Below, piece after piece: positions 45,212 to 64,000 of a stretch of DNA of 64,000 nt. A program made the position numbers and the translations under genes. This stretch comes from Candidatus Latescibacterota bacterium (GTDB lineage Bacteria > Krumholzibacteriota > Krumholzibacteriia > WVZY01): positions 256,001-320,000 of the forward strand of contig CAWBQK010000011.1 of NCBI GenBank assembly GCA_963791045.1, written 5' to 3'. Each line of letters opens with the position of its first letter. The stretch's first letter is position 1. The notes beneath the pieces were generated by a model. It did not search any database and was not told the DNA's origin. It worked only from the letters and a program-made list of their open reading frames with translations.

Positions 45212-45379
45212 TGACGGTCTCCCAGGGTAGAGACGATGTGGGGATTTAAGGGCGGGGCTATGCCTAATTATAAAACATCGAAAGGGTGAAAGCAACGGCA
45301 CGGCTTCAAGTTAGCCGTGCCGAAGACTCGAACACAATTCGAGGTGGCAGTATTTTGAACACAACGTCAGGCAGTGTCC

Positions 45380-48064: not shown

Positions 48065-48724
48065 CGAGAGGTTTATCCCGGTGTTGAATGCGTGGACGAT
48101 GGGTCGCCCTTTTGTGTCCTGTCGGACATAATTGACGGTGACGCCCATATGATCGATGAGGAAAATCTGTGTTCCCAGGAGGAACCGATTTCGATTTGGA
48201 TAGTCGCCCCAGTGCTCCCTGTCGTCGCCGAATACCTCGGTGGCGACAAACGGCGCAACGGAGAATCTGCCAAACTGTGCCTTGTAGGAGAAGCCGACTT
48301 TTGCTCGGAACCGGATATGGTCCTCGATCAGGTTCTGCTCGAAGTATCTTGATTCTACACGGAATCGCGAAATAAGCGTTATGCCGCCGAAGATACCCGG
48401 CGTCCATCCACCCTGAACCGCCACCCGGTTCTCGCTCTCCTCGAGCGTTTGTGTTTGCAGGTTTTCACGTCTGTAGAGAACGCCGACATAAAATTTAGCG
48501 GGCAGTTTGGATGTCAGCCCACCCTGGATACCGTCGAGGAACGGATCGCCGAAGGACATTCCCTCCGCGTAGCGGCTTTCGTGGCAAAATTGTAAACTGA
48601 AGTTTTTTGAAGCGCTGATTTTCAGCGTGTTTGTCATCCAAGCCTGATCAGCGGCCAGCGCACAATTCGCGGCCGCTCCCACAAAAAGAAACAGTAGCCC
48701 CGATGTGAATACAATGCGTTTCAT
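48059..48724 (-). CDS. DUF2490-like outer-membrane beta-barrel protein
   Basis: Signal peptide; ENR, RFRVESR, RFR, E.F and NR..LG pattern. Confidence 0.7.
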   Translation of the reverse strand: MKRIVFTSGLLFLFVGAAANCALAADQAWMTNTLKISASKNFSLQFCHESRYAEGMSFGDPFLDGIQGGLTSKLPAKFYVGVLYRRENLQTQTLEESENRVAVQGGWTPGIFGGITLISRFRVESRYFEQNLIEDHIRFRAKVGFSYKAQFGRFSVAPFVATEVFGDDREHWGDYPNRNRFLLGTQIFLIDHMGVTVNYVRQDTKGRPIVHAFNTGINLSL

Positions 48725-48885
48725 TCCAACAACCCAACCTCTCATCGCCTTCCAAAATATCTGTATGTCGTTTAGAGCCGACACTCTTCGAGTGCGGCTC
48801 AAACGACACTAAAAATGTGGGCGCAAGCGTTGTCATAAGTCCTTCCGGCCGCGCCCGGTGTTGCGCGGCGGCGGTTCTTTGGCGG

Positions 48886-50982
48886 CTATTGCGCTGCAAC
48901 GGCTGTCTCGTCCGAGTCCTTCGCTCCGCACAGCGCTTCCAACTCACGGTTGTAACAGTAAATCCCGCAGTTAAGACAGCGTTCCGCCTCGTAGCGGGCG
49001 TCTTTTTCGTCGATTGTCCCCTCGACTTCATGAAACGTTCCCAGACGTTCCTCGAGCGGAATTTCCGGTTCGTGGACACGCGGTTTGGGGGCGACGTCGA
49101 GAATCGATTCGAGCATGCACGCCGAAATCATATCGCGTTGACGGTCACAGATCGGTGGAATCTCGCCCTCCATCATGTAGAAATGAATCGAGCGCGCCAC
49201 ATAACGTCCCGCCGCGATCGCGTCAACCATTAGTGCGGGGCCTGTAAAACAGTCGCCCCCGGTGAAGATATAGGGAATGTCCGTTTGCAGCGTGTCTTCG
49301 CTCGCTTCGATGGTGTTCCACTTTGTGGTTTGAAGGATCGTCGTCTTGTCGTGTTCGACGAAATCAAGGTTGGGGAACTGACCGATGGCTTCGACGATCA
49401 TGTCGCATTCGATGATCTCTTCGGACCCTTCGATGGGAACCGGCCGGCGCCGTCCGCTCGGGTCGGGATCGCCAAGCTCCATTTTTTGCACTTCGAGTCC
49501 CCTGACATGTCCGTCGACGACGATCATTCGTTTTGGCGAGGAGAGGAAATGGAATTTGATTCCTTCCTCCTCTGCCGCGACGATTTCAACCGGGTTTGCC
49601 GGCATCTCGTTTCGCGATCGCCGGTACACCATCGTGACGTCTTTGGCTTCCATCCGCAGCGCGCTCCGCGCGGCGTCGATCGCCGTGTTGCCGCCACCGA
49701 CAACAATGACGCTCTTGCCGACCTCGACGCCCTCGCCGGTGTGGAACCGCCTCAAGAAATCTATCCCGCTGAAGACACCTTTGGACTCGCGTCCTTCGAT
49801 GTTGAGCGCATGATCGTTCCATGCGCCGACGGCAAGGAAGATAGCGTCAAAACCACCGGCGCGGAGAAATTCAATAGTGAAATCCTCACCGAGCGCGACA
49901 CCGGTGGTCGCCTTGATGCCAAGCCCGAGTATCCCATCGATCTCCCAGTCGAGGATTGCCTTTGGCAGGCGATACTCGGGAATCCCGTAGCGAAGCATGC
50001 CGCCGAGCTTTTCCTGTTTTTCGAAGATTTCGACATCGTGTCCGAGCCGCCTGAGATAGTATGCCGCGGAAAGTCCTCCGGGACCGCCGCCGATGACGGC
50101 GACCTTTTTCCCTGTAGAGGCGCCGACGGGAATCGACAGCCTCCCGCCGGAGTTCATTTCCCAGTCGGCGGCGAAGCGTTTGAGATAGTTGATCGCCACG
50201 GGCTCATCGTTCAGTTTGCGTCTGCATTCCAACGCACAGAGTTCGGGACACACCCTTCCCGTGCTCAAGGGCATCGGGTTGCACTCTTTTATTGTCAGAA
50301 GCGCCTGCCCATATTCCCCTTTTTTGATGTGTTGAATATATTTTGGAATGTTGATCTGCGCGGGGCACCTCTGGCGGCACGGCGCGAGACACTCCGTGTA
50401 CTGGTTCCAATGGAGGATTTTCGCTTTTTCGGAAATCAACGTGATGATGCCCTTCGGACATGCGCGCGCGCACTGACCGCATCCCACGCAGCGATTGGGG
50501 TCGAACTTGGGCAGACCGTTTGGCCCCATTGTGATTGCGCCGAATTTGCACGCTTTGACGCATGAGCCCAAACCAATGCAGCCGTGCTCGCACATGATCG
50601 GCCCGTGATAGTAAAGCATCGCCGCGCGGCAGTCGTCGAAGCCCGAGTAATCATATTTGACGGCTGCCCGTTCGCCCCCGCGGCACTCGTGAACCGCCAC
50701 CTGGGGCTCGGTTCCAACCATGCGGATTCCAAGATAATCGGCTATTGCGTTCGCCGTTTCGGTTTGACCGATGACGCATACATTGGCTTCCGCTTCTCCC
50801 TTGACGATCGCTTCCGCGCACGCGCTGCATCCCGCATACCCACATCCCCCACAGTTTGCCCCGGGGAGCAGATCGAGGACGCCTTTGATGCGCGGATCCT
50901 CTTCAACGTAGAAAATAATTCCCGCGATCCCAAGAATGACCGCCGCGAGAAAACCGATTCCAGCTAAAACCAACACTGGCAT
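48886..50982 (-). CDS. rnfB: RnfB fused to a GltD/NfnB-like FAD/NAD(P)H oxidoreductase
   Basis: TM, LPGANCGGCGYAGC, two ferredoxin motifs, then APC...CP, GRVCP..C, IGGGPGG, YGIPEYRLP, GGGNTAID, YRRS and ERCLNCG. Confidence 0.9.
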   Translation of the reverse strand: MPVLVLAGIGFLAAVILGIAGIIFYVEEDPRIKGVLDLLPGANCGGCGYAGCSACAEAIVKGEAEANVCVIGQTETANAIADYLGIRMVGTEPQVAVHECRGGERAAVKYDYSGFDDCRAAMLYYHGPIMCEHGCIGLGSCVKACKFGAITMGPNGLPKFDPNRCVGCGQCARACPKGIITLISEKAKILHWNQYTECLAPCRQRCPAQINIPKYIQHIKKGEYGQALLTIKECNPMPLSTGRVCPELCALECRRKLNDEPVAINYLKRFAADWEMNSGGRLSIPVGASTGKKVAVIGGGPGGLSAAYYLRRLGHDVEIFEKQEKLGGMLRYGIPEYRLPKAILDWEIDGILGLGIKATTGVALGEDFTIEFLRAGGFDAIFLAVGAWNDHALNIEGRESKGVFSGIDFLRRFHTGEGVEVGKSVIVVGGGNTAIDAARSALRMEAKDVTMVYRRSRNEMPANPVEIVAAEEEGIKFHFLSSPKRMIVVDGHVRGLEVQKMELGDPDPSGRRRPVPIEGSEEIIECDMIVEAIGQFPNLDFVEHDKTTILQTTKWNTIEASEDTLQTDIPYIFTGGDCFTGPALMVDAIAAGRYVARSIHFYMMEGEIPPICDRQRDMISACMLESILDVAPKPRVHEPEIPLEERLGTFHEVEGTIDEKDARYEAERCLNCGIYCYNRELEALCGAKDSDETAVAAQ

Positions 50983-51000
50983 GATCGAACTCCACCTTGC

Positions 51001-51576
51001 TTAATTGACCATTCCGGCAAAACCGAGAAAGGCGAGTGACATGATTCCCGCTGTAACCAGGGCGATAGCTGTTCCCTTCATCGCCTCGGGGACGGGAGAA
51101 ACCATTAGTCTTTCGCGCAAACCGGCAAAAAGGATTATAGCCAGGGCAAATCCAGCCGCGCTGGCCATCGAGAATACAACCATATCGATAAATCCGAACT
51201 CGTGCTTGATGTTGAGAAGCGCCACACCCATAACCGCGCAGTTCGTCGTGATGAGCGGAAGATAAATGCCGAGCGAGTTGTACAAGGCGCGACTCTGTTT
51301 TTTGAGGAAGATCTCCACGAACTGGACCAGCGACGCGATTATCAGAATGAAGGTCAGCGTCCGGAGGAATTCCATATCATAGGGCTTGAGAAGGTAGTGA
51401 TACGCAAGCCATGTAAAAATAGACGCCAACGTGGTGACGAATATTACCGCCACGCCCATCCCGATCGACGTTTCGAGCTTTTTCGACACACCGCAGAACG
51501 GACAGTTGCCCAGGTACTGTGCGAGAAGAATATTGTTTACAAAGATGGCGCTTATGGCCAGATACAGGAGATCCAT
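51001..51576 (-). CDS. rnfA: Rnf complex subunit A
   Basis: NNILL..YLG.CPF, LVQFVE, LGIYLPLITTNCAV. Confidence 0.95.
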   Translation of the reverse strand: MDLLYLAISAIFVNNILLAQYLGNCPFCGVSKKLETSIGMGVAVIFVTTLASIFTWLAYHYLLKPYDMEFLRTLTFILIIASLVQFVEIFLKKQSRALYNSLGIYLPLITTNCAVMGVALLNIKHEFGFIDMVVFSMASAAGFALAIILFAGLRERLMVSPVPEAMKGTAIALVTAGIMSLAFLGFAGMVN

Positions 51577-51585
51577 CTACTGCTC

Positions 51586-52200
51586 CTAAGTTTGAACAAA
51601 CGTTTCTCCGCGTTTGCGACTGAATGCGTTCATAAGTCCGAGAATTATTCCCAGACAAAGAAAGGCGCCGGGCGCTTGTACCATGAACTCGAACGGTTCA
51701 TACGAGCTCCCAAACACCGGAATTCCGAAGAAGGTGCCTGCGCCGATAACTTCGCGCAGCGAACCGACAACCGTAAGCGACATTGTAAAACCCGCGCCGA
51801 CACTCAGACCGTCGGCGATCGACAACCCGACACTATTTTTGGAGGCGAAAGCCTCTGCGCGGCCGAGAATGATACAGTTGACGACGATGAGTGGAATGTA
51901 GATTCCGAGCTGTTCGGAGAGCGTAAAGAAAAACGCTTTCATCATGATCTCGACGATTACGACGAGCGTGGCGATGATAACGATAAAACTCGCGATCCGG
52001 ACCTTGTCGGGAATCGCCTTTCTGAGCATCGATATAAACATATTTGAGAACACGAGCACGAATGTAGCTGCTACGCCCATCCCCAGGCCGTTCTCCGCCG
52101 ACGAAGTGACGGCGAGCGCGGGACACAATCCCAGGACGAGACGAAACGGTGGCAGATCGTTCCACAAACCGTGAGTCAGAGCTTTCTTAAACGTCATCAT
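51586..52200 (-). CDS. rnfE: Rnf complex subunit E
   Basis: LGLCPALAV, LGIYIPLIVVNCIILGRAEAFA and PGAF. Confidence 0.95.
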   Translation of the reverse strand: MMTFKKALTHGLWNDLPPFRLVLGLCPALAVTSSAENGLGMGVAATFVLVFSNMFISMLRKAIPDKVRIASFIVIIATLVVIVEIMMKAFFFTLSEQLGIYIPLIVVNCIILGRAEAFASKNSVGLSIADGLSVGAGFTMSLTVVGSLREVIGAGTFFGIPVFGSSYEPFEFMVQAPGAFLCLGIILGLMNAFSRKRGETFVQT

Positions 52201-52221
52201 CAAACCCTTTTTGGTAACGGG

Positions 52222-52298
52222 AAGCGGATAAGCCGTCGATCCCATCCACGTCGTGTCCGATCGGTGATCTCCCGGGTAACAGACGGCTCTATCCGCTT
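52222..52298. other. Long stem-loop in the rnfG-rnfE spacer
   Basis: AAGCGGATA-AGCCGTC (52222-52237) pairs with GACGGCT-c-TATCCGCTT (52282-52298). Confidence 0.65.
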
Positions 52299-52299
52299 A

Positions 52300-52893
52300 T
52301 CAGTCCTTTTTGTCCTCTATCGACGCGATTATCAAATCGCGGTTTTTTGTAAGCAGTTCAACGATCCGGTTGGTGCCGTTGACCATTGCTTTCGACGAAT
52401 AGGTGGCTCCGCTTATCGCGTCAATTCCGCCGCCCATGGTTCTCAAAGCCACCGGCTCGTCCACCGGAATTCTCCGCCACTGATTTCGGAACGATTCTCT
52501 TTCGACTTTTGATCCGACACCGGGCGTTTCGTTGTGTTGAATGATTTCAATTCCGACCATCTCGCTGTTCTGAACGTCGATTCCGATCATGACGGAGATG
52601 TCTCCGCCGTAGCCGCCTTTTCCCGCCGCTTCGAGGGCGAGGAATGTCACTTTGCCGTCTTCCGTCAGATAAAAGACCGGGATCGTCTCGCCTTCGACGT
52701 TCACGCTGACTTTTTGTCCGAGAAGCTCCGAAGCGGGGAGGTCAAAGAGCCGCTCGAGTGCGGGTCCGCGGACGTAAAAGTCATTCTGCCGCTCGATCCT
52801 CGGTCCAAGCGATTGACGAGCAGCCGTGAGCGCGGCGGCGGATATGCCGCAGATCAACGTGAGCACGAGGGCGAGACGACCGATCTCACGCAT
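52300..52893 (-). CDS. rnfG: Rnf complex subunit G
   Basis: TM anchor, GYGG.I, HNETPGVG and FMN site DAISGATYSS. Confidence 0.93.
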   Translation of the reverse strand: MREIGRLALVLTLICGISAAALTAARQSLGPRIERQNDFYVRGPALERLFDLPASELLGQKVSVNVEGETIPVFYLTEDGKVTFLALEAAGKGGYGGDISVMIGIDVQNSEMVGIEIIQHNETPGVGSKVERESFRNQWRRIPVDEPVALRTMGGGIDAISGATYSSKAMVNGTNRIVELLTKNRDLIIASIEDKKD

Positions 52894-53860
52894 TTTCTAC
52901 TCCTTCCAGCCCGCGCACCTTTGGGGTGATACGGTCGAGCAAAGGCGTGCACATATTGACGAGCAGAATCGCAAATACAACTCCGTCGACATGGTTGGAA
53001 AACGCCCGGATGATCATCAGAAGCGCGCCGCCGAGAAATCCATAAATCAACATCGGTATTGGATTCACCGGAGAGGTCGAGTGGTCCGTCGCGAGGAAGA
53101 ACGCCGCGAACACCGTACCGCCCGAAAGCAGGTAGAATGTCGGCGACGCGAACAAGTCGGGGCTCACCGCTCCGATGACTCCGGCCATGAGCAGATTTCC
53201 CGCCAGAAAACCCGCCGGGATCTGCCATGAGATTTCACGCATAATGAGAAGGAACAGCCCGCCAATCAGCAGGAACAAGACGAGTCCGTTGCCAATGCCG
53301 GCCGCTTGTTTGCCAAGAAGAAGGTCCTGCCATGCAAACATTGATTCCGCGCTGCTTCCCATGGACCTGGCTACCCTGAGCGGTTCGATCATCTTGACTC
53401 CCCAGTCGATTGACACTAGGGACGCCGTGTAATCGAGCCGTTGCGGCCAGGACACCTGCAGCATTGCAAAACTTAGCAGTGCGGGATGGACGGGGTATGA
53501 CCCCGTGCCGCCAAAAAGCTTCTTGCCCACGACTATCATCAAGAGACACCCCACCATGATGATCCACCACGGCGTGGTGCATGGCAGGAGCAGCGCGAAG
53601 ATGACCGCGAGCGTTACGCTGCTCCAGTTTGCCGTGAAGTCCTTGGAGGGAATGAGCCTGTTCATAATCGAGTCGAAAGCGGTGGAAAAAACCACCGCAA
53701 GCCCGATGATCCGGATTGTATCCCATCCAAAAAGCCAAACGCTTGCCGCGATTGCCGGCAAAAGCGCGATGAGCCAGCGTTGATGAACGCCGGGCAGGTT
53801 ACTTCCGTCCCTCCAATGGGGACTCGATGCAACATCAAGGTGTCCAAATTCTTCGGGCAT
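52886..53860 (-). CDS. rnfD: Rnf complex subunit D (atypical)
   Basis: SSPH, K.LFGG.G...HPAL and AFFLATD..TSP; no ATPL or GETS motif. Confidence 0.9.
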   Translation of the reverse strand: MPEEFGHLDVASSPHWRDGSNLPGVHQRWLIALLPAIAASVWLFGWDTIRIIGLAVVFSTAFDSIMNRLIPSKDFTANWSSVTLAVIFALLLPCTTPWWIIMVGCLLMIVVGKKLFGGTGSYPVHPALLSFAMLQVSWPQRLDYTASLVSIDWGVKMIEPLRVARSMGSSAESMFAWQDLLLGKQAAGIGNGLVLFLLIGGLFLLIMREISWQIPAGFLAGNLLMAGVIGAVSPDLFASPTFYLLSGGTVFAAFFLATDHSTSPVNPIPMLIYGFLGGALLMIIRAFSNHVDGVVFAILLVNMCTPLLDRITPKVRGLEGVENA

Positions 53861-53864
53861 CCGA

Positions 53865-55149
53865 TTATCCTTCGTACTGATTGCAGAGTTTGATCATTTG
53901 TACCAGGGGCCGGTGCGCCGGACAGACATAGGCGCACAGACCGCATTCGTTGCATGCTTCGGGATGAAACTTTTTGATGTCCAGGAACAAGTTGTGTTCG
54001 ATGTATCGCCCCAGGAGATGCACTTGAATATTCGCCGGACACGCGCGCGTGCAACGGCCGCAGTTGATGCACGGCAAGTTGATGTCCGGCGGCACCTTGT
54101 CTTCCGAAACGAGGTAGACCCCGTGCACCGATTTGGTCAAAGGCGTTTCATCGGTGAACTGCGCATTGCCTTTCATTGGGCCGCCCACGAGAAGTCGTGA
54201 GTAGGGGACGTTGTCCAACCCCAGGTCATGGAGGATCGTCCGGATCGATGTCCCGATGGGGAATCGAGCCACGACGGTTTTGGAGAAGAGAATCCCCGCC
54301 AACCGTCACATACTTCTCCGTGAATGGCCCGATTCCTTCCAGTGCGTCTATCATCGCGAGAAGGTATTCAACAGAAAGGACGGCGACGCCTTTTCGCCGG
54401 TAAGCGATCGTATTCGGAATTGTCTTGTTCGTGATCTTCGGAATGAAAAAACGCTCGATCCGTTCTTTGTATTGATCGGGAAGCGCCACCACCTTCGCCT
54501 TGTCTCCGAACTCATTCGAGGCCCAGGACGAGAGCCGCTTCGGCACGGTGAGAAGGACCTTGGCATTGGGCGCGATGCCGCCCAGAAGATCCATCCCGCG
54601 TTTGATGTCTTCCGGCACTTTTTGTAGAAGGGTTTCAAACGTAAAAACCGAGGGTTCTTCGTTGACACCCTTTATTACGATGGTATCGACTTCGGGAAGC
54701 CCTTCGGGCGATTCCTCGTGATGAAATTTCCCCGGGAGTGTCCACGGACAAACGACTCCGGACACTTTGAGGCGGTCGACCCATGAGGTGATTTCACCCT
54801 GCGAGCCCGACCTCTCAGTTATTTCGTCACCACTCAGCGGTGGTTCGCCGTTCTTTGAGATTACCACCGCCGGCACGTGATAACTCCGCGCGGTCCAGAT
54901 CGTTTTTATCTCTTTGACAACCCCGCTAATTGAAGCGTGGACGCAGTTGCCGAGTTTGGAGCGACCGATGATCTGGTTCTTGCGGACGCTGTCTCCTTCG
55001 CGGACTTCCGGCATGTACAGGATCTGTCCGGGATACTCGAGCGGAATTACAACCGAGTCAGGGTCGGAGATCTTGTGTATTTCGCCGTCGCACGAGTTGC
55101 CGTTCGGCACGTACGTCAATGGTTTAAAAAATGTTCGGAGTGAGATCAT
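53865..55149 (-). CDS. rnfC: Rnf complex subunit C (atypical), +1 frameshift near 54290
   Basis: V..GD.V...Q.I, VHASISG.V, GGPMKG, CINCGRC..ACP and CNECGLCAYVCP; split over ORFs 54226..55200 and 53865..54302. Confidence 0.85.
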
Positions 55150-55221
55150 GGTTGTTTGATTCTCATGTTGTTGGTTGCTCGTTGTTCCCGGAGCGCGCAT
55201 GCCTGCGCCCCGGCGGGTTTG

Positions 55222-55848
55222 TTACTCGAGATGGCATGACTGACAGCGAGCGCCGCCATTCTGGTCGGCAAAAATACCGGGACGTACGGTCAAGTGACAG
55301 TGACTGCAGTGTCCATGAAAAACCGCGCCGATGGCCCGGGGATGATGACATCCCTCACAACCATGCCCCTCCACACCCAACATCTCATCGTGTGTCATCA
55401 GATCCGGTGTGTAGTCGTCGTCGTGGCATTCCACGCACCCGACGGCCGCGAGATCGACCGGCTCGTCCGTCGGATGACAACCGCGGCAGGAGTTTGCCCG
55501 GGCGTTTTTGTCCACCTGGTGGCAGCGCTCGCACGCATGGCCTTCTATGGTTTTCAATTCCTCGTGATCAAAATCTTCGTGTGTCATGCCCTCATCATGA
55601 CAGTCACTGCACGGAACTCGTGAATCGGCCAGGAGGAGTTCGTGGTGACAACTTTCGCAACCTTCGGCATAACCGGCGTGGGCCTTGTGATCAAAGACCA
55701 CGGCTCCGGCGCTGCTGCGGATGTAGTACCTCTTGGACTCGTCGGGGCCGTTGTCCACCACGTACGCTACGCACGCCGCCAGGGCTGCGATTGCGGTCAG
55801 GATCAAAAGAGTCCGTGTGCCTGGAAGGCCGTGGAATCTACCATTCAT
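55222..55848 (-). CDS. Membrane-anchored octaheme cytochrome c (class III/c3-like)
   Basis: N-terminal hydrophobic helix, GAVVFDHKAH and eight CxxCH motifs. Confidence 0.9.
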   Translation of the reverse strand: MNGRFHGLPGTRTLLILTAIAALAACVAYVVDNGPDESKRYYIRSSAGAVVFDHKAHAGYAEGCESCHHELLLADSRVPCSDCHDEGMTHEDFDHEELKTIEGHACERCHQVDKNARANSCRGCHPTDEPVDLAAVGCVECHDDDYTPDLMTHDEMLGVEGHGCEGCHHPRAIGAVFHGHCSHCHLTVRPGIFADQNGGARCQSCHLE

Positions 55849-56311
55849 GACTGTCCTCAAGCATTATTTGTTGTTCATCGTCCGGATCTATCTCGTGCCA
55901 TGGACAACCGGCCCTGAGGCAAATGAGAAACGGCACTTTCGCTTCGGATACCGTCACCAGAAAGCTCGCCACCTGCGAATCGCCGATGCCGCAGTGCTTT
56001 CCGGGGACGACGAGCGATTTGTGGCAGTGGGGGCATCGAAGATCTTTGAGCTCCTCGCCTTCGGGGACGACCATTGCTGTTTTCCGCTCGTAAACATTGA
56101 GGTAGGCGCTCAGTTCGACAGTGCCGGTTTCTCCGGACTGGTTGATCGCCTCGAACAAAATCACGTTGTTCTGTGACAACTTTTCGTCGCAGTGCGGGCA
56201 AAACGAACGGAGATACGTTCCGGATTTGACTTTGATCCGTTCGTTATATTTGTGGGCTTTCCAAGCCAGATTTTCCCAGCTCTTTCCCCGTTCAGGCTTT
56301 TTCTCCGTCAT
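55838..56311 (-). CDS. Cys-rich putative metal-binding protein
   Basis: CPHC twice, an extra Cys and C-x4-C-x2-H; overlaps the cytochrome gene start. Confidence 0.75.
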   Translation of the reverse strand: MTEKKPERGKSWENLAWKAHKYNERIKVKSGTYLRSFCPHCDEKLSQNNVILFEAINQSGETGTVELSAYLNVYERKTAMVVPEGEELKDLRCPHCHKSLVVPGKHCGIGDSQVASFLVTVSEAKVPFLICLRAGCPWHEIDPDDEQQIMLEDSHEW

Positions 56312-56374
56312 TGTTTCCTCGTCTCCGCGCCCGTGCGTTTGTATAGGATTCGTGACATTTGTGGCGGATTCGTT

Positions 56375-57475
56375 CTATATCTGCCCGGCATCTGCTGCGC
56401 TCTGATAGAGGGCCGTGGTTGCCGGTGCCTCTCGTATTGGATAAAGCCGGTCAAATTCCGGCGTTGAGATTTCTTTGAAACCTTCATCCGTATTGACTAT
56501 CAAGTGGGCGGCGAGCGAAAGCTCCACCGCCAGTTCGTATCCGTCTTCGGGTCCGAGAACGCTTATCGCTGTCGCCATGGCATCCGCGTAGGCGCACTGT
56601 TGGTGGACGACGGCAGCGGATACTAGTCTGTGTGTTATGGGGTATCCGGTCCTTGGGTCGATCAAGTGCGAGTACTTCTTCCCGCCGCTCTCGAAATAGT
56701 TGAGATAGTTGCCTGACGTTGCCATAGAAGCGTTCTTGAGCGAAATGACTCGTGTCACGCCTACGGTTTCTTCGGGCTTCGCGATTCCGATTTGCCAGCA
56801 TGTGTTTTTGTCGTTTCGCCCTTGTGTTCTGATTTCTCCCCCAATTTCGACCACATAGTCCGAATGTCCGCTGATGTCGAGATAACCTGAGATTCTATCG
56901 ACGGCGTATCCCTTCGCGATTCCCGAGAGATCGCAGTAAATATCACCCTGGGATTTTCTGAGCGACGCGGGAGAGAGTCGTACCTCCACCTTTTGATAAC
57001 CGGTTCGTGAAAGGGCTCTGCCGATTTGAATGTCCGATGGCACGCTCGGTTTTCTCGCGACCGGGCCGAACCCCCACAAGTTTACAACCGAGCCGATTGT
57101 CATGTCATACGCGCCCCCCGTTGCCTCGCTGACTTCGATCGCCTGTTTGACTACCGCGGCGGTGTTGACCGATACGGGGAACCAGTCCGAGCCTTTGAAT
57201 TTGTTGAACCGCGAGATTTCCGAACCGGGAAGATACGTGGACATCTGTGCGTTGATTTCCACAAGTATCGCGTCGATGTCTTTCTCGGTTTTCTTGATTC
57301 GCTGTTCCGGATATCTGGGATCAACGCAGATCTTGACCATGTAAGCCGTCCCCATCGTTTCACCTCTGATTGCGACGATTCTGCTCGATCCTGGGTTCGA
57401 GCAACTCGGAATCACAAGGGGAACGAGCACGAACAAACAGAAGAGCGATTTTATATGCTGTGCAAGAAAGGTCAT
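56375..57475 (-). CDS. apbE: FAD:protein FMN transferase
   Basis: Lipoprotein leader; TMGT, SEISRFN, DLSGIAKGY, EIGGE, ATSG.Y, HLIDPRTG and ADAMATA. Confidence 0.95.
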   Translation of the reverse strand: MTFLAQHIKSLFCLFVLVPLVIPSCSNPGSSRIVAIRGETMGTAYMVKICVDPRYPEQRIKKTEKDIDAILVEINAQMSTYLPGSEISRFNKFKGSDWFPVSVNTAAVVKQAIEVSEATGGAYDMTIGSVVNLWGFGPVARKPSVPSDIQIGRALSRTGYQKVEVRLSPASLRKSQGDIYCDLSGIAKGYAVDRISGYLDISGHSDYVVEIGGEIRTQGRNDKNTCWQIGIAKPEETVGVTRVISLKNASMATSGNYLNYFESGGKKYSHLIDPRTGYPITHRLVSAAVVHQQCAYADAMATAISVLGPEDGYELAVELSLAAHLIVNTDEGFKEISTPEFDRLYPIREAPATTALYQSAADAGQI

Positions 57476-57478
57476 GTG

Positions 57479-58699
57479 TTAGTCAGCCACCCATCCGAAA
57501 AGAGGAATTCCGATGACACTGTGGGCCAGAACGGCGGTTCCATATACTGCCTCCACGATTTTGTTTACATCGACATGTTCGTTGGCCGCGTGGGCGGAGA
57601 TTTCATCGCCGGGGCCGAAGCAGACCGTGGGGATCTTGTAGTTGCCGACCAGTTTGCTTCCCGCCGTCCCCATTCCAAGCCGATCCAGCGCGCATTTGCG
57701 AATCGGAACATCGCCAAAACCCGCGGCGGCAAGCGCCGTATGAGCTTTGTCGACTGGAGGATCCAGCGGTTGAGTGGTCCAGGGTTCGGTTCTGTAGGAC
57801 ACGTCGGTCGCCAGTCCCGTGTACATTTTTTGACGTTCCTTGTGAACGTGGATGCCGAACGGGACGCGGTCGAGAATCTTCAAAGCAGAAATGACTTTGT
57901 GTTGCACCCGAGCGACGCAATCGTCGGCGGATTCGCTCATCCTGATTCGGTGGCGAATTCTTATGGTAGCCTCCGTGGTGTCGTCGACTTCCATGTATGA
58001 CGGCTGATCGATCTGGGTCATCTCGTGATCGTCCTGGTCGGTGAGATCGGGGTCCGGAGCATCAAGGTATTGATAAATCAGTTCCGATGCGCGCTTGACT
58101 CTGAATTTCTCTTTGCCCTCGATGTTTACATCGACATCGACCCACCCGTCGTGGCCGTTGCACATGGTCAGCGAGGTTGGCTCACCGAGGACGGCAAGAT
58201 CCGGTTCGAATCCGAGTTTTGGAAGTGTTTCCTCGAGCAGATGCTGGGTGCCCGCGCTGCAGCCGTTTTCTTCCGCCACCGTCGATGCGACGACGAGGTT
58301 TCCCCTCAGCGGCAGCCGGCTCTGATCCAGCACGTGTCCCGCCATGATTTGAGCGGCAAGCCCTCCCTTACAGTCGGCCGCGCCGAGACCGAAAACGTGC
58401 CCGTCCCGGCGCTCGCCTGAAAATGGGGAATCATTCCATGAACCATCAGGGCGGACCGTGTCCATATGGGAGCTCAGAAGTACCGTCGGCCCATCCTCTC
58501 CTCCCACCATGATGCCGATCACGTTCCCCGCGGCATCTCTGAAGACGAGATCATAATCCATCTCCTCCAATATATTCTGGACGCGGTCCGCCATTTTCCT
58601 TTCCTGCAGGCTGAAGCTCGGAATCCGGATGAGTTGTTGGGTAATCCGGATCGTCTCCTCGCGGAGGTTGTCGGTCATTTCTCTAATTTGCCGGTACAC
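57479..58699 (-). CDS. M20-family metallohydrolase (ArgE/DapE/YgeY-like)
   Basis: SHMDTV, G.GAAD.KGG, EE, LGEPT and FGPG...AH..NEH. Confidence 0.9.
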   Translation of the reverse strand: MYRQIREMTDNLREETIRITQQLIRIPSFSLQERKMADRVQNILEEMDYDLVFRDAAGNVIGIMVGGEDGPTVLLSSHMDTVRPDGSWNDSPFSGERRDGHVFGLGAADCKGGLAAQIMAGHVLDQSRLPLRGNLVVASTVAEENGCSAGTQHLLEETLPKLGFEPDLAVLGEPTSLTMCNGHDGWVDVDVNIEGKEKFRVKRASELIYQYLDAPDPDLTDQDDHEMTQIDQPSYMEVDDTTEATIRIRHRIRMSESADDCVARVQHKVISALKILDRVPFGIHVHKERQKMYTGLATDVSYRTEPWTTQPLDPPVDKAHTALAAAGFGDVPIRKCALDRLGMGTAGSKLVGNYKIPTVCFGPGDEISAHAANEHVDVNKIVEAVYGTAVLAHSVIGIPLFGWVAD

Positions 58700-58748
58700 G
58701 GCCCTTTGACTCCCTTAAATTCAGTAGTTAGTTGAACCTTAGCTAAGG

Positions 58749-58763
58749 GCAAGGGGCATGCCA
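58749..58763 (-). promoter_or_regulatory. Sigma-54 promoter of the M20-apbE-cytochrome-rnf operon
   Basis: Minus strand TGGCATGCCCCTTGC (GG-N10-GC), 50 nt upstream of the M20 start. Confidence 0.85.
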
Positions 58764-58820
58764 TAATAGCAGGACCTTGTAAGCGATTTAATATTAGCAG
58801 GTTATGTGGCAAATCCACGC

Positions 58821-58875
58821 TTGACAAATAGGCGCAATCATTCTATTATGGAATATAAGTATTTCAAAACGAAAA
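58821..58875 (+). promoter_or_regulatory. Sigma-70 promoter of the activator overlapped by two putative UAS palindromes
   Basis: TTGACA (58821)-17-TATTAT (58844); ATTCTATTATGGAAT (58840-58854) and ATTTCAAAACGAAAA (58861-58875), 21 bp apart. Confidence 0.7.
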
Positions 58876-58876
58876 G

Positions 58877-60511
58877 GTGGTCGCGATGCGCGCCGAGGAC
58901 CTGAGACTCGAAGATTTGGTGACATTTTCTGAAGGAATCGTCAGCCTCCACGGGAGACGGTTGGTGCTGCATGATATCCACGCGATGGCCCAGTTGCGCA
59001 AGGACCTCGTCGAGACTATCGGTGGGCAGCAAACCCGGCGTATATTGACGCGTTTTGGATTTTACTGGGGAGAAGCGGATGCCGCCGCCATGCAGCGCAT
59101 TGTCCAATGGCGAAACGTTGCGGAGTGGATGCGGGCGGGTCCCCAGCTCCACCGTCTCCAGGGTGTCGCCAATGTGGAGATAAAGTCCTTTAATCTAAGG
59201 GATTATGGGGAGTTTCACATCGAAGTGCACTGGCATGAATCCGCGGAAGCTGAAGAACAACTCATTGAACTTGGAGAGACCGCGGCTGGCGGTTGTTGGA
59301 TCACGCTTGGTTACGCCAGCGGATACGCATCCTATTGTCTTGGCAGTCCGGTTTATTTCAAGGAGACGAGTTGTCGGGGGCGGGGTGACAAGCACTGTAT
59401 TGCCGTCGGGAAAGATAGTAAAACGTGGGGTGAGGATGCGGAGGTCTTGTCGCTGGACTACCAGGGGGATGATATCAAGGGCAAGATTGATGAGATGGCG
59501 ACTGAACTCCGAAAGAAAACGCTCGAGTTGGCGCGGCAACGTAAAAAACTCAAACGGGTCAACCCGATCGCGGGTCCGAACACCGCGGAGACGAGGAGCA
59601 AGTCCTTTCAGCAGGTTCTTGACTCGGCGCGCCGGGTGGCGCGATTCGACTCGTCGGTTTTGATTACGGGAGAGAGTGGTGTCGGAAAAGAAGTTGTGGC
59701 CCGATTTGTCCATGAAAACTCACCACGAAGCCGCAAAGCGTTTGTTGCAATCAACTGCGGGGCGCTTCCCGAAACACTCCTCGAAAGCGAACTTTTTGGC
59801 CACAAGGCTGGATCCTTCACTGGCGCCATCCGCGACCGGGCGGGGTTGTTCGAACAGGCGTCCGGCGGGACGATTCTTCTCGATGAAATCGGTGACGTAA
59901 CGCCGGCGCTTCAGGTGACCCTGCTTCGGGTCCTTCAGGAGAAAAAAATCCGGCGCGTGGGGGACAATACGTTTCGGGATGTTGATGTCCGCATCATCGC
60001 CGCGACCAACCGAAAGCTGGATCAGGAAGTGCGCGAGGGGCGTTTCCGTGACGACCTGTTTTATCGGCTCCGTGTTGTCGAAGTCCACATTCCGCCGCTG
60101 CGGGAGCGCGTCGTCGACATTATGCCCCTTGCCCGCTTCTTTGTGGAGCGGCTGAGCAAACGGCTCAGAATTCGCCGTCTGGCGATTGAGCCGGATTGTC
60201 TCCGCTTCCTCGAAACCTACCCGTGGCCGGGGAACGTGCGCGAACTCGAGAATGCCCTCGAAAGAGCGGCAGTGATGACCGATGATGGCTGGATTCGTGT
60301 GGAGCATCTGCCGCCCGACATGGTCGAAAACGATGTCTTTGGCAGCGGGACGGTTTCGAGCCTGAAGAGAACGCTTGCCGACACGGAACGAGATTACGTT
60401 CTCGCGGTATTAAAGACGGTCGATGGGAACAAGACCCACGCGGCGAAGATTCTCGGAATCGGCAACACAACACTCTGGCGAAAACTTAAGGAGTGGGGCA
60501 CAGAGACCTGA
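58877..60511 (+). CDS. Sigma-54-dependent activator with XylR-N/V4R sensor domain
   Basis: XylR-N (RLVLH...QLRKDL...RFG..WG..D), V4R (C...GYASGY...E..C.G.GD..C), GESGVGKE, ESELFGH..GSFTGA and Fis HTH. Confidence 0.93.
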   Translation: MVAMRAEDLRLEDLVTFSEGIVSLHGRRLVLHDIHAMAQLRKDLVETIGGQQTRRILTRFGFYWGEADAAAMQRIVQWRNVAEWMRAGPQLHRLQGVANVEIKSFNLRDYGEFHIEVHWHESAEAEEQLIELGETAAGGCWITLGYASGYASYCLGSPVYFKETSCRGRGDKHCIAVGKDSKTWGEDAEVLSLDYQGDDIKGKIDEMATELRKKTLELARQRKKLKRVNPIAGPNTAETRSKSFQQVLDSARRVARFDSSVLITGESGVGKEVVARFVHENSPRSRKAFVAINCGALPETLLESELFGHKAGSFTGAIRDRAGLFEQASGGTILLDEIGDVTPALQVTLLRVLQEKKIRRVGDNTFRDVDVRIIAATNRKLDQEVREGRFRDDLFYRLRVVEVHIPPLRERVVDIMPLARFFVERLSKRLRIRRLAIEPDCLRFLETYPWPGNVRELENALERAAVMTDDGWIRVEHLPPDMVENDVFGSGTVSSLKRTLADTERDYVLAVLKTVDGNKTHAAKILGIGNTTLWRKLKEWGTET

Positions 60512-60556
60512 CGTCACAAACCCTCGATTTTCAACGTCCTTCTTCAAAATCATACC

Positions 60557-60660
60557 ATTTCAAATCGGAATAAATGTTTTGTCGGGTTGAACGTCACCTG
60601 GCTGCAACCGGATATATATAAATAGGTTATAGCGCCCGTGAAATTTGGCATGTGAGTTGC
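60557..60660 (+). promoter_or_regulatory. Sigma-54 promoter of gdh with putative UAS and IHF site
   Basis: ATTTCAAATCGGAAT (60557-60571), IHF-like TATAAATAGGTTA (60617-60629) and TGGCATGTGAGTTGC (60646-60660). Confidence 0.8.
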
Positions 60661-60839
60661 CGTCGTACTTCCTGTATAGTTAAATATCACTTGATTTTAT
60701 CGGCGGTGGCGAGTGGAGCGGATGATGGCGGATGAGAATGGGGATTACAACCGGCCGAAAAACAAGATTGCATTGACCGCACCATTAAACGATTGAGAAC
60801 CCTTTGGTTTTCCGTGGGAGGAGGCGACAGGTAATCATT

Positions 60840-62156
60840 ATGTCGACAAACAAAGGCGGATCTTCTGGCAGTAAAAACAAAGCATTTAATTCGTTTGAGA
60901 TGGCACAAGCTCAATTTGACACTGTTGCTGAAATTTTGACTCTGGATACCGCGACGCGGCATCTGCTTCGACAGCCGCTTCGTGAATTCTCGTTCGCAAT
61001 ACCGGTGAGAATGGACGATGGGAGTGTCGAGGTGTTTCGCGGATTCCGCGTTCAGCACAATGACGCGAGGGGTCCGGGAAAAGGCGGGATCCGATTTCAC
61101 CCGCAGGAGACACTGGACACTGTTCGAGCGCTCGCCATGTGGATGACCTGGAAGTGTGCCGTGGTCGACATCCCTCTTGGTGGTGCCAAGGGAGGGGTTA
61201 TCTGCGATCCCCACAACCTCAGCGCTCGTGAACAGGAACGGCTGTGCCGCGGTTGGGTTCGGCAGATCGCCCGGAACGTTGGTCCGACGACCGATGTACC
61301 GGCACCCGACGTGATGACGTCCGCACAGCATATGCTGTGGATGCTGGATGAGTTCGAAACGATCCATGGGAGCAAGCTTCCGGGGTTTATCACTGGAAAA
61401 CCTGTTGGCATGGGCGGGTCATTGGGTCGAACGGAGGCCACCGGATTTGGCGTTGTGTTCACGATCCGTGAAGCACTCAAGGAACTCGGAATCCGGGCTT
61501 CCGACACAACAGCGAGTGTCCAAGGATTTGGCAACGTAGCGCAGTACGCGATCGAGTTGTACCTTCAGCTTGGTGGAAGGGTGTGTTGTGTATCGTCCTG
61601 GGATCAGGAAGAGCAGACGTCGTACGCCTTCAGAAAAAGCGACGGATTAGATCTCGACGAACTTCGCGGCATAACAAATCGCTTCGGTGGGATCGACAAG
61701 GAAAAAGCGCGCGACCTGGGTTACGATGTGCTTCCAGGTGATGATTGGATTTCTCAGGATGTGGATATATTGTTGCCGGCGGCGTTGGAAAATCAGATCA
61801 ACGGCGAGAGCAGTCTCCGGATCAGCAAAAAAGTCAAAATCGTGGCAGAAGGAGCCAACGGCCCCACGTCTCCCGAGGCAGATGCGGTGCTCAAGGAACG
61901 GGGGATTTACGTCATCCCCGATTTCCTTGCAAACGCCGGCGGAGTGACCTGCAGCTACTTCGAACAGGTTCAAAGCAACATGAACTATTTCTGGGAGCGG
62001 GACGACGTGCTTGGCCGACTCGACATCAAAATGACATCGGCATTCGTCGCGGTGAGTGAACTTGCCAGGAAGAAGAAGCTCTCCATGCGTGAAGCAGGGT
62101 ACGCGATCGCTATCGACCGTGTTGCCAAGGCCTGCAGAGATCGAGGATGGGTGTAG
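60840..62156 (+). CDS. gdhA: Glu/Leu/Phe/Val dehydrogenase, probably glutamate dehydrogenase
   Basis: RVQHN.ARGPGKGGIRF, MTWK, GGAKGG, DVPAPD, GGSLGRTEATG, QGFGNV and EGANGP. Confidence 0.88.
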   Translation: MSTNKGGSSGSKNKAFNSFEMAQAQFDTVAEILTLDTATRHLLRQPLREFSFAIPVRMDDGSVEVFRGFRVQHNDARGPGKGGIRFHPQETLDTVRALAMWMTWKCAVVDIPLGGAKGGVICDPHNLSAREQERLCRGWVRQIARNVGPTTDVPAPDVMTSAQHMLWMLDEFETIHGSKLPGFITGKPVGMGGSLGRTEATGFGVVFTIREALKELGIRASDTTASVQGFGNVAQYAIELYLQLGGRVCCVSSWDQEEQTSYAFRKSDGLDLDELRGITNRFGGIDKEKARDLGYDVLPGDDWISQDVDILLPAALENQINGESSLRISKKVKIVAEGANGPTSPEADAVLKERGIYVIPDFLANAGGVTCSYFEQVQSNMNYFWERDDVLGRLDIKMTSAFVAVSELARKKKLSMREAGYAIAIDRVAKACRDRGWV

Positions 62157-62224
62157 CGACCATCGTACGCGGCCGGGGAGCGTATTAGCCGTGTAATTTC
62201 TTCCGGAAGTGATGATAACTGCCA

Positions 62225-63969
62225 TGGCTGTTTTTGGAAAAAAAGATCTTCCTCCTTTCTCAAGGGCTTTTTGGGAGTCGGATGAACCGTTCAGCCGGAT
62301 TGGCGATGGTGAACTTGGAGGCAAGGCCCATGGTCTGGTTTTTATAAGGGACATTGTCGAAGCGGAGCTCAAGAATGGGCGGTATCGTGACATCGTTTTG
62401 AACATTCCCAAGTCCGTTGTGTTGACGACGAGTGTTTTCGACGCTTTTATGGATCGAAACGACTTGTTCGACATGGCCTTATCGGATGCGCCGGATGACA
62501 GAATTGCCCTCGCGTTTCAGGAGGGAAGCCTCCCGGTGGAAGTTGTCGGTGACTTGAGGGCGTTGGTCCAGGGAATCCACCAGCCGCTGGCCGTCAGGTC
62601 ATCGAGCTTGTTGGAAGACGCGCTCTTTCGCCCGTTTGCCGGTGTTTATGGAACCAAAATGATTCCGAATAATCAGCCTGATCCTGCGGTTCGTTTCAAA
62701 AAGCTGGTTGAGGCCATCAAATTTGTTTACGCCTCGGTGTACTCGAAATCGGCAAAAAGTTATATCGGCACAACCGACACCGATATTCAACATGAGAAAA
62801 TGGCTGTGCTCATCCAGGAAGTCGTGGGCGTACACCGGAACGAACGTTTTTATCCGCATATTTCCGGCGTGGCGAAGTCCTTTAATTTCTATCGGTCTGG
62901 GCCCGCCAAACCATCTGAAGGTGTCGTTAGCCTTGCGCTGGGGCTTGGGAAAACGATAGTCGATGGGGGACTAGCCTGGTCCTATTCTCCGGCACATCCC
63001 AAGGCTCCGCCGCCGTTTGCATCGGCAACCGACATGTTAAAGCAGACCCAAGCGAAGTTCTGGGCGGTTGGAATGGGCAAACCACCGGCGTTCGATCCAA
63101 TTAATGAGGCCGAGTATCTAACAGCGTCGGATTTGGCAACTGCGGAATACGACGACACGCTTCGGTATGTTGCGTCGACCTACGACGCCCGATCGGACCG
63201 TATAGTCCCCGGTACCGGGCCCGACGGTCCACGGGTAATCAATTTCAGCCCGATTCTCGTTCATAAGCAGCTTCCGCTCAATGAGCTTTTGAAAGAGCTC
63301 CTTCACGTTTGTGAGAATGCCGTGGGGGCCAAGGTCGAAATCGAGTTTGCCGTGACGTTACCGGACAGCCGGTCATCGACGGCGCGTTTTGGTTTTCTCC
63401 AGATCAGACCGATGGTTGTCTCGGATGAAGTCGTCGAGTTGGATGACGATGCCTTCGACTCGCCGGATATCCTCGTCGCGTCGGATCGTGTCATGGGTAA
63501 TGGGGTCGATTCGACGATTCACGATATCGTTTATGTCAAACCGGATGAGTTCGACGCGAAGTTTACACGTCAGATTGCCGGGCAGCTGGACGTCGCTAAC
63601 AAGAAACTGATTTCCGAAGCGTGTCCCTATCTTTTGATTGGATTCGGCCGATGGGGCAGCGTCGATCCGTGGCTCGGAATCCCGGTGGAATGGGGACAGA
63701 TCTTCGGCGCAAAAGTCATCGTGGAGGCGACGCTCCCGAAGATGAATGTCGACCCGAGTCAGGGAGCCCACTTTTTTCACAACCTATCGAGCTTCAAGGT
63801 CAGTTATTTTTCGATACATCACGGGCGATCTCCCGGTATTGATTGGGAGTGGCTGGAAAGCCGGCAGACCATCAGCGAAACCGAGTTTATCCGGCATGTA
63901 CGGTTGGGTTCTCCCTTGCAAGTCAGGGTGGACGGCCGAACGGGCCGGGGTGTCATTCGGCATGCGTGA
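62225..63969 (+). CDS. PEP-synthase-like ATP-grasp (PPDK_N) protein without phospho-His domain
   Basis: LGGKA.GL, AVRSSSLLED, FAGVY.T, EIEFA, LQIRP, G.GRWGS.DPWLGIPV.W..I and PSQG.HFF.N. Confidence 0.85.
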
Positions 63970-64000
63970 CCGGTCTGCACTTAAATGCAACGCCAAAGGC

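Follow-up and report, generated by a model that had tools for sequence, protein, structure and literature searches.

The stretch of DNA analysed here, in the following called the window, comprises 64,000 nucleotides (nt) of a Candidatus Latescibacterota bacterium (assembly GCA_963791045.1, contig CAWBQK010000011.1, positions 256,001-320,000 of the forward strand). It contains a leftward operon for a cytochrome-associated Rnf complex that resembles the Rnf2 type of sulfate reducers, a rightward operon headed by a glutamate dehydrogenase gene (gdh), and between the two the gene of a single sigma-54-dependent activator. Genes were called from a list of open reading frames (ORFs) in combination with Pfam and NCBIfam profile scans.

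All genes of the leftward operon lie on the minus strand and are described in the direction of transcription. The first encodes an M20 family metallohydrolase (57479-58699; Pfam Peptidase_M20), for which the best NCBIfam match is YgeY-like (188 bits, below the cut-off of 321). Its stop codon is separated by only 3 nt from apbE (56375-57475; Pfam ApbE, 282 bits), the gene of an FAD:protein FMN (flavin mononucleotide) transferase with the lipobox IPSC at its N-terminus, i.e. a predicted lipoprotein. Next come a cysteine-rich protein of 157 residues with seven cysteines (55838-56311), the gene of which overlaps the cytochrome start by 23 nt, and an octahaem cytochrome c (55222-55860; eight CxxCH motifs, Pfam Cytochrom_CIII), likewise a predicted lipoprotein, with a likely ATG at 55848 and the lipobox LAAC. 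The rnf genes proper follow as rnfC (53865-55200, in two frames; RnfC_N and Fer4 families), rnfD (52886-53860; TIGR01946, 221 bits), rnfG (52300-52893; Pfam FMN_bind), rnfE (51586-52245; TIGR01948, 238 bits), rnfA (51001-51576; TIGR01943, 255 bits) and rnfB (48886-50982), with the three TIGR matches exceeding their cut-offs. No terminator-like site was found in the minus-strand gaps between the leftward genes. A first reading of the window from its letters alone (the original prediction) had named the M20 hydrolase, apbE, the cysteine-rich protein, the octahaem cytochrome, rnfCDGEA and an rnfB fused to a GltD-like part, and each of these assignments was confirmed by the ORF list and the profile scans.

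The RnfB polypeptide of 698 residues consists of an RnfB part (residues 1-190) and an NfnB/GltD-like module for NAD(P)H, FAD and two [4Fe-4S] clusters (residues 195-680). Pfam places FeS and Fer4 domains at residues 39-181 and Fer4_20 and Pyr_redox_2 at 198-592, while RnfB models of NCBIfam match residues 3-257 and PRK12771 matches 194-678. The same partition is seen in alignments to sequences of the PDB, where residues 2-190 correspond to residues 8-197 of the 333-residue A. woodii RnfB and residues 195-677 to NfnB-like modules (9bov, 9n5u, 8oh5, 4ylf, 5jca), NfnB itself among them. A literature search on RnfB fused to GltD or glutamate synthase yielded nothing relevant among the papers listed.

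For comparison, 31 loci with a fused RnfB were taken from species-representative genomes of other assemblies, in which the fusion is kept across Desulfobacterota and lineages of the FCB (Fibrobacterota, Chlorobiota and Bacteroidota) type. Identity to the window RnfB is 65-74% in a first group of metagenome-assembled genomes (MAGs) labelled Calditrichota, Zixibacteria, 'Fibrobacteraceae' and Marinimicrobia, 57-59% in Desulforhopalus and 51-56% in Desulfovibrionaceae and Desulfobacteraceae. In a phylogenetic tree with stand-alone GltD-like proteins as outgroups, all 28 fused RnfB sequences are united in a single clade (support 0.999); support for a division of this clade into two subtypes is weak (0.60 and 0.19). 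Judged by sequence, the window protein thus shares common descent with the fused copies of Desulfobacterota. The host itself belongs to the FCB superphylum as far as can be told from RpoB, a fragment of which is 77% identical to one MAG and 68-70% identical to MAGs of Gemmatimonadota, Ignavibacteria, KSB1, Zixibacteria and Krumholzibacteria. Fused RnfB was not found in 40 relatives, 12 of them of the same family, where GltD-like paralogues are the only matches. In a sample of 207 other genomes of the phylum, full-length fused orthologues (65-71% identity) occur in 12, and two more are cut at contig ends; all of them belong to one other family. This distribution fits an acquisition of the Rnf2 operon by transfer.

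The second departure from an ordinary Rnf complex concerns RnfC. The N-terminal part of the window protein matches RnfC_N only and the C-terminal part Fer4 families only, with neither Complex1_51K nor SLBB found; in an intact orthologue (L003) Complex1_51K reaches 17.9 bits, below the cut-off of 31.2. The genome contains a further rnf cluster, of canonical type, on contig C7, which allows a direct comparison; its RnfC carries RnfC_N, Complex1_51K (149 bits), SLBB (45 bits) and Fer4. When both proteins are aligned (alignment A1), the canonical GLGGAAFP loop faces CPWTLPGK in the window RnfC. The GLGGAAFP and NGCECEPY stretches are replaced in the subtype to which the window belongs and deleted in Desulfovibrio-type copies, and a regular expression for the FMN/NADH loop motif matched none of 26 RnfC sequences encoded beside a fused RnfB. 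The two [4Fe-4S] clusters of RnfC are kept, all eight cluster cysteines being invariant.

In the window rnfC occupies two frames (54226-55200 and 53865-54302), while related loci carry the gene in one. Taken at face value, this sequence would mean that the complex is inactive in the strain and that the locus is decaying, which is nevertheless considered very unlikely. A single extra letter at 54286/54287 splits the gene. A 162-nt contig of the public run X3, with one substitution, lacks the letter at 54286 (depth 3.3, weak alone), and when this letter is left out rnfC is open over 444 codons, yielding a product 58% identical to the intact orthologue L003. The remaining genes of the operon are all intact. 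Moreover, the assembly (81% complete, 5.8% contaminated) contains many indels: matches to the essential rpoB span at least three frames (G000 C5:44991-48769), and a NuoF-GltD-like gene is broken into three or four pieces (L043:15358-17842, L044:52-549). With so many frameshifts any single broken gene of this genome is to be distrusted. Because the X3 contig lacks the letter and rpoB and the NuoF-GltD-like gene are fragmented as well, the break in rnfC is read as an assembly indel, and the gene is probably no pseudogene.

RnfD of the window is devoid of the covalent-FMN threonine motif (S/T-G/S-A/S-T), and [ST]G[AS]T has no match in it. In the canonical in-genome RnfD this motif is present as SSAT at residue 176 and faces K-MIEP of the window protein (alignment A2). 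The motif occurs nowhere in 23 of 26 RnfD orthologues, and in the other three the matches are found at other positions. RnfG retains its flavinylation motif (SGAT, residues 161-164), and the motif is also present in 23 of 28 orthologues; the best NCBIfam model for RnfG is RnfG_DVU2794 (167 bits, below the cut-off of 205). With both cytoplasmic-side flavin sites, those of RnfC and RnfD, gone and the periplasmic site of RnfG kept, the range of plausible electron paths is narrowed. The rewiring inferred in the original prediction is borne out by an NAD(P)H/FAD module on RnfB, an RnfC without FMN/NADH site, a retained RnfG motif and a cytochrome predicted to be periplasmic.

A multihaem cytochrome ORF is located just upstream of rnfC in 21 of the 25 related loci with flank, and an octahaem orthologue directly precedes rnfC in 13 loci. 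The cysteine-rich protein and the octahaem cytochrome together precede rnfC in all 13 first-group and Desulforhopalus loci with an upstream flank, and the cysteine-rich protein is found in none of the 12 loci of Desulfovibrionaceae and Desulfobacteraceae type. All seven cysteines are invariant across ten orthologues of this protein, for which no Pfam or NCBIfam family scored over cut-off. Its AlphaFold2 model is beta-rich with a mean pLDDT (predicted local distance difference test) of 68.6. A Foldseek comparison with the PDB found nothing at E <= 0.001; the top hit was the C-terminal domain of a RIG-I-like receptor (E 0.07). With VIA-align wide the best Z was 3.2, so that no fold was assigned, and the Atlas feature search returned unnamed and zinc-ribbon-bearing clusters only. 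In one related locus (L002:3373-4506) an ORF of 377 residues with 13 CxxCH motifs is situated directly before the cysteine-rich gene of the Rnf2 operon.

Elsewhere in the genome of the window cytochromes are plentiful, with 17 ORFs that contain at least three CxxCH motifs, two of them 19-haem proteins. Multihaem cytochrome ORFs with 19, 19, 9, 8, 6 and 4 CxxCH motifs are clustered at G000 C15:249464-261696; this cluster may form a periplasmic or extracellular system for electron transfer and could accept electrons from the Rnf2 cytochrome.

The architecture of the complex is not new. Doerries et al. (2016, PMC5109826) described a different Rnf type that occurs in Desulfobacula toluolica, D. 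multivorans and D. autotrophicum. According to the passages on Rnf in that paper, Rnf2 has an RnfB of about 700 residues with NAD-binding sites, a cytochrome in the rnf2 cluster and an RnfC without the NADH-ubiquinone-oxidoreductase and SLBB domains, for which a donor or acceptor other than NAD is to be identified. Expression of Rnf2 in a sulfate reducer is reported there under all tested substrates. The window shares with this description the RnfB of about 700 residues with an NAD(P) module, the RnfC without Complex1_51K and SLBB and the cytochrome in the cluster, as well as the presence of a canonical Rnf1 in the same genome, here on contig C7. In gene content and sequence the complex is thus a copy of the known Rnf2 complex of the Desulfobacula toluolica Tol2 type, a putative membrane redox pump, and what appears new is the subtype with a cysteine-rich partner, the lineage and the unique sigma-54 wiring. 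In comparison with the Rnf2 passages of PMC5109826, the host is an uncultured lineage of the FCB superphylum instead of Desulfobacterota, the cytochrome is a lipoprotein octahaem protein of about 21 kDa instead of a 15 kDa cytochrome, a conserved cysteine-rich protein is added, M20 and apbE stand in front, and the operon has a sigma-54 promoter with a gdh operon facing the same activator. The RnfB sequences differ as well, with only 51-56% identity to the copies of Desulfobacteraceae and Desulfovibrionaceae.

Further Rnf complexes linked to cytochromes are known. In Methanosarcina acetivorans rnf is transcribed together with the gene of a multihaem cytochrome c (Suharti et al. 2014, PMC4023990); in the sections of that paper on the complex, the flavin of periplasmic RnfG is put forward as electron donor of the cytochrome, and NAD(P) is not used. 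The multihaem cytochrome, the missing use of NAD(P) at RnfC and the RnfG flavin as donor are common to both complexes. However, ferredoxin is used there at an ordinary RnfB and methanophenazine is the acceptor (PMC4023990), whereas here an NAD(P)H flavoprotein module resides on RnfB; NCBIfam models of the Methanosarcina type remain far under their cut-offs. The rnf operon of Desulfovibrio also includes a multihaem cytochrome c, proposed as a bridge between the pool of periplasmic cytochromes and the NAD(P)H and ferredoxin of the cytoplasm, and in D. gigas the gene of a sigma-54 response regulator is shown beside rnf (PMC4287179). The likeness to the window lies in the multihaem cytochrome, the proposed bridge and the neighbouring sigma-54 regulator; the passages of PMC4287179 on Rnf treat the Desulfovibrio complex as a ferredoxin:NAD+ type and do not mention a fusion of RnfB. 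The Zixibacteria genome RBG-1 is without Rnf (PMC3903129).

To canonical Rnf complexes, as represented by those of A. woodii (9eri), C. tetanomorphum (7zc6) and A. vinelandii (8ahx) and by contig C7, the window complex is similar in its six subunit families and in the gene order rnfCDGEAB. It differs from them in lacking the FMN/NADH site of RnfC and the flavinylation motif of RnfD, in having the NAD(P)H module in place of the distal part of RnfB, and in the additional cytochrome and cysteine-rich protein. The canonical cluster of this genome (L045, G000 C7:5378-18660) comprises rnfC, D, G, E, A and apbE, and is preceded by the genes of a 1559-residue POR_N/PFOR_II/Fer4 protein and a 234-residue RnfB-like ferredoxin, an unusual partner for Rnf.

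The Na+-translocating NADH:quinone oxidoreductase (Nqr) offers an analogy for the proposed input side. In Nqr a separate nucleotide-binding flavoprotein, NqrF, feeds the NqrD/NqrE pair and a quinone is reduced; NqrA, the homologue of RnfC, has lost the nucleotide site and bears no cofactors, and FMN is covalently attached to NqrC and NqrB. By analogy, and with NCBIfam scores as the only data compared, both systems would pass electrons from a pyridine-nucleotide flavoprotein to the RnfA/RnfE-type pair from the cytoplasmic side and on to the periplasmic FMN of RnfG. They would differ in that the input of the window complex is a GltD/NfnB-like fusion, that its RnfD has no FMN threonine and that its likely acceptor is a cytochrome c.

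The activator gene (58877-60511, plus strand) encodes XylR_N, V4R, Sigma54_activat (AAA+, 233 bits) and HTH_8 domains with a GSFTGA loop at residue 312. It is preceded by a sigma-70-like promoter of its own, TTGACA-17-TATTAT (58821-58849, plus strand), which matches at 11 of 12 positions. The claim that this one activator lies between two outward-facing sigma-54 sites held when the window was scanned for TGGCAC-N5-TTGC with at most one mismatch. The leftward -24/-12 site TGGCATGCCCCTTGC (58749-58763, minus strand, one mismatch) is located 50 nt before the M20 start, and the rightward one, TGGCATGTGAGTTGC (60646-60660, plus strand), also with one mismatch, precedes gdh. Only three such sites occur in the 64 kb of the window, and two of them flank the activator; the third, TGGGACATTTCTTGC, is at 9381-9395 on the plus strand and again has one mismatch. 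Since the whole genome contains 131 such sites in 7.3 Mb of strand, i.e. about 0.018 per kb, two correctly oriented sites within about 470 nt of intergenic DNA are far above chance. The genome also encodes rpoN (460 bits, over cut-off).

For the rightward arm, the original prediction of gdh followed by an 'ATP-grasp' gene was correct in its first part, and the second needs rewording. Glutamate dehydrogenase (60804-62156, plus strand; likely ATG at 60840) is matched by ELFV_dehydrog and ELFV_dehydrog_N of Pfam and best by GdhA_Arch of NCBIfam (464 bits, below cut-off). The following gene (62209-63969, plus strand) encodes a 586-residue PPDK_N-domain protein (Pfam, 111 bits), which has the ATP-grasp fold and belongs to no ligase family; no PDB sequence matched it at E <= 0.01. 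A third gene, for a PPDK_N and NTP_transf_2 protein of 1119 residues, starts at 63843 on the plus strand and runs off the window at 64000 (L043:843-4202). Orthologues of the 586-residue protein with 59-68% identity follow gdh in relatives, and a glutamate dehydrogenase of 75-80% identity stands directly before the PPDK_N orthologue in six of seven loci with at least 58% PPDK_N identity. Judged by this synteny, gdh, PPDK_N and PPDK_N-NTP_transf_2 form a three-gene module conserved in relatives. A sigma-54 site or an activator was found within 6 kb upstream of the module in none of the five relatives examined. A paralogous set lies about 20 kb downstream in the same genome (L044:1362-9291, G000 C11) and consists of genes for a GltB-like FMN-domain protein, a PPDK_N protein (600 residues), a PPDK_N-NTP_transf_2 protein (1057 residues) and an NADP-type glutamate dehydrogenase. 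Neither of the two PPDK_N proteins falls into a named family or matches a sequence of the PDB.

As a general module the linkage of M20, gdh and Rnf is not upheld, because it is not conserved, an outcome that the original prediction had itself named as refuting. Genes for M20, gdh and PPDK_N stand beside Rnf2 in none of the 31 related loci within the flanks fetched, apbE is nearby in two of these 31, and a sigma-54 site before the Rnf2 operon is present in one of 21 relatives (L012). From the side of the activator, neither Rnf nor M20, gdh or PPDK_N neighbours were found in any of 80 activator-like loci, nor was a fused RnfB found in any of the 40 relatives. On this comparative evidence the linkage is a mosaic of one genome, put together from three separately conserved parts, i.e. 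the Rnf2 operon, the activator and the gdh arm. The local arrangement may still be functional in this genome, where co-regulation of the two arms is plausible from their position.

From these observations the following reading is preferred, and its truth is judged slightly better than even: the operon encodes an ion-coupled conduit of the Rnf2 type from NAD(P)H to periplasmic cytochrome c, and its two arms are probably co-induced, Rnf2 together with the gdh operon. The FAD of the NfnB/GltD-like module on RnfB would accept electrons from NAD(P)H, and these would travel through the two [4Fe-4S] clusters of the module and the clusters of RnfB to the membrane pair RnfA/RnfE. This pair would reduce the periplasmic FMN of RnfG, presumably attached by the lipoprotein ApbE of the same operon, and RnfG would in turn reduce the lipoprotein octahaem cytochrome c and through it a periplasmic multihaem network; flow in the reverse direction is conceivable as well. 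Ion translocation would be coupled to this transfer as it is in Rnf and Nqr, while RnfC and RnfD would have been kept for structure or as part of an ion channel, or would form a side branch towards a cytoplasmic partner. In this genome only, the Rnf2 and gdh operons would each have gained a sigma-54 promoter directed away from the single XylR_N/V4R activator between them. As both operons have such a promoter at the same activator, the source of NAD(P)H, glutamate oxidation, and its respiratory outlet would probably be induced together, by a small-molecule signal.

Several points weigh against this reading, in the chemistry of the complex as well as in its wiring. NfnB-like modules bifurcate electrons in Nfn and Stn enzymes, and the chemistry here may be more complex than a linear transfer. 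The invariant cluster cysteines of RnfC argue that electrons still cross this subunit, so that the plain path from NAD(P)H to cytochrome may be incomplete. No cytochrome ORF was found upstream of rnfC, under the filter used, in four of the 25 related loci with flank. In the Rnf passages of PMC5109826 the mode of action of Rnf2 'awaits experimental verification', and the cytochrome of the D. multivorans cluster was detected in lactate-grown cells only.

The complex might then still be linked to ferredoxin. In this alternative the RnfC clusters, or a docked cysteine-rich protein, would exchange electrons with ferredoxin or another low-potential carrier, and the complex would join ferredoxin, NAD(P)H and the cytochrome, for instance as a confurcating or bifurcating enzyme or a three-way device. 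The conserved RnfC cysteines would find an explanation here, and the module on RnfB most closely resembles the NfnB-like modules found in enzymes of the Nfn and Stn types; a partner of RnfC other than NAD is still sought in the Rnf2 passages of PMC5109826, and a conserved cytoplasmic cysteine-rich protein is encoded in all 13 loci of the subtype with flank. On the other hand, RnfD is without the covalent-FMN site that connects RnfC with RnfG in canonical complexes, no ferredoxin gene was detected in the operon by the Pfam and NCBIfam scans, and the cysteine-rich protein, being absent from all 12 loci of Desulfovibrionaceae and Desulfobacteraceae type, cannot be a general partner. A ferredoxin link is regarded as unlikely.

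With respect to the wiring, the layout of M20, Rnf2, activator and gdh is seen in one imperfect genome, and its junctions at 58.7 kb and 60.6 kb are taken from this assembly. A search of both intergenic regions for shared k-mers and palindromes gave no convincing common binding motif for the activator, the best 15-mer having three mismatches, and the genome contains 16 other activator paralogues. Among the 80 activator-like loci, full-length matches are confined to two Myxococcaceae MAGs (45-47% identity), and among the 40 relatives only one, G002 of the same family, has an orthologue of the sensor domain, with 63% identity over the whole protein. In G002 the activator gene (L219, C47; 9937-11652, plus strand) also lies between two outward sigma-54 sites (9812-9826, minus strand, and 11793-11807, plus strand), which speaks for the regulatory part of the preferred reading, but the genes driven there are unrelated: those of an epimerase and a radical SAM protein to one side, and those of a glycosyltransferase and a Pat-like CoA-ligase/GNAT protein to the other. 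No activator-binding motif common to the promoters of the window and of G002 was found. An M20 orthologue of 43% identity is encoded 7 kb from the G002 activator. An activator between two outward sites with different cargo suggests a portable regulatory frame.

Such a frame leads to a further alternative, in which the adjacency of gdh and Rnf2 is an accident of gene flux. A transferred Rnf2 operon and a resident gdh module would have come to lie beside the activator, the promoters would serve any neighbour or answer to different activators, and no link to amino acids would exist; the mechanism of the pump itself could be the same. This is thought quite possible, though short of probable. It would account for the missing linkage at the 31 Rnf2 and 80 activator-like loci, for a fused RnfB that was not found in the 40 relatives and is confined to another family in the phylum sample, for the unrelated cargo within the same promoter-activator-promoter frame of G002, for gdh modules that in five relatives have neither an upstream sigma-54 site nor an activator, and for the want of a common upstream motif. 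An accident is less easily reconciled with two promoters that are both near-consensus and correctly placed. Furthermore, apbE, which is needed for flavinylation of RnfG, forms a tight operon with M20 (the 3-nt gap), so that the leftward unit looks assembled for function, and the oxidation of NAD(P)H made by glutamate dehydrogenase would be a sensible pairing.

The preferred reading of an NAD(P)H:cytochrome c conduit can be extended to the subtype as a whole, characterised by the cysteine-rich protein, the lipoprotein octahaem cytochrome, the RnfB-NfnB fusion and the lost flavin sites of RnfC and RnfD. This subtype might oxidise NAD(P)H with cytochrome c as acceptor and pump ions in the manner of Nqr, injecting reducing power from amino-acid oxidation by glutamate dehydrogenase directly into a periplasmic or extracellular multihaem network of uncultured sediment FCB bacteria, with the cysteine-rich protein as a new subunit in place of the nucleotide domain of RnfC. 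So far-reaching a proposal is doubtful. If true, it would constitute a new respiratory entry point independent of quinones. Rnf2-type complexes are widespread, and the present genome offers a comparison with a canonical Rnf in the same cell and a conserved partner of no known family, the cysteine-rich protein. Its Rnf2 operon shares a presumed sigma-54 activator with a gdh operon, a hint of amino-acid-derived NAD(P)H as donor which, coming from a single imperfect assembly, deserves modest weight.

As to the habitat, the public runs that share sampled words with the genome, at most 0.32 of them, are sediment metagenomes; among four runs compared more closely, near-identical short contigs are present in the marine-sediment run X2. 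Run X10, a sediment metatranscriptome library, contains a 270-nt contig that covers the junction of cytochrome and rnfC (window 55040-55300) with one difference. It is a weak hint of expression, as it may also stem from carry-over of DNA. Downstream of the operon, 83 nt after rnfB and on the same strand, a DUF2490 protein is encoded (48059-48802, minus strand) that was not found in related loci. About 2 kb beyond the operon, and separated from it by a pseudouridine synthase gene on the opposite strand, lies the gene of a di/tripeptide transporter of the POT family (45306-46874, minus strand).

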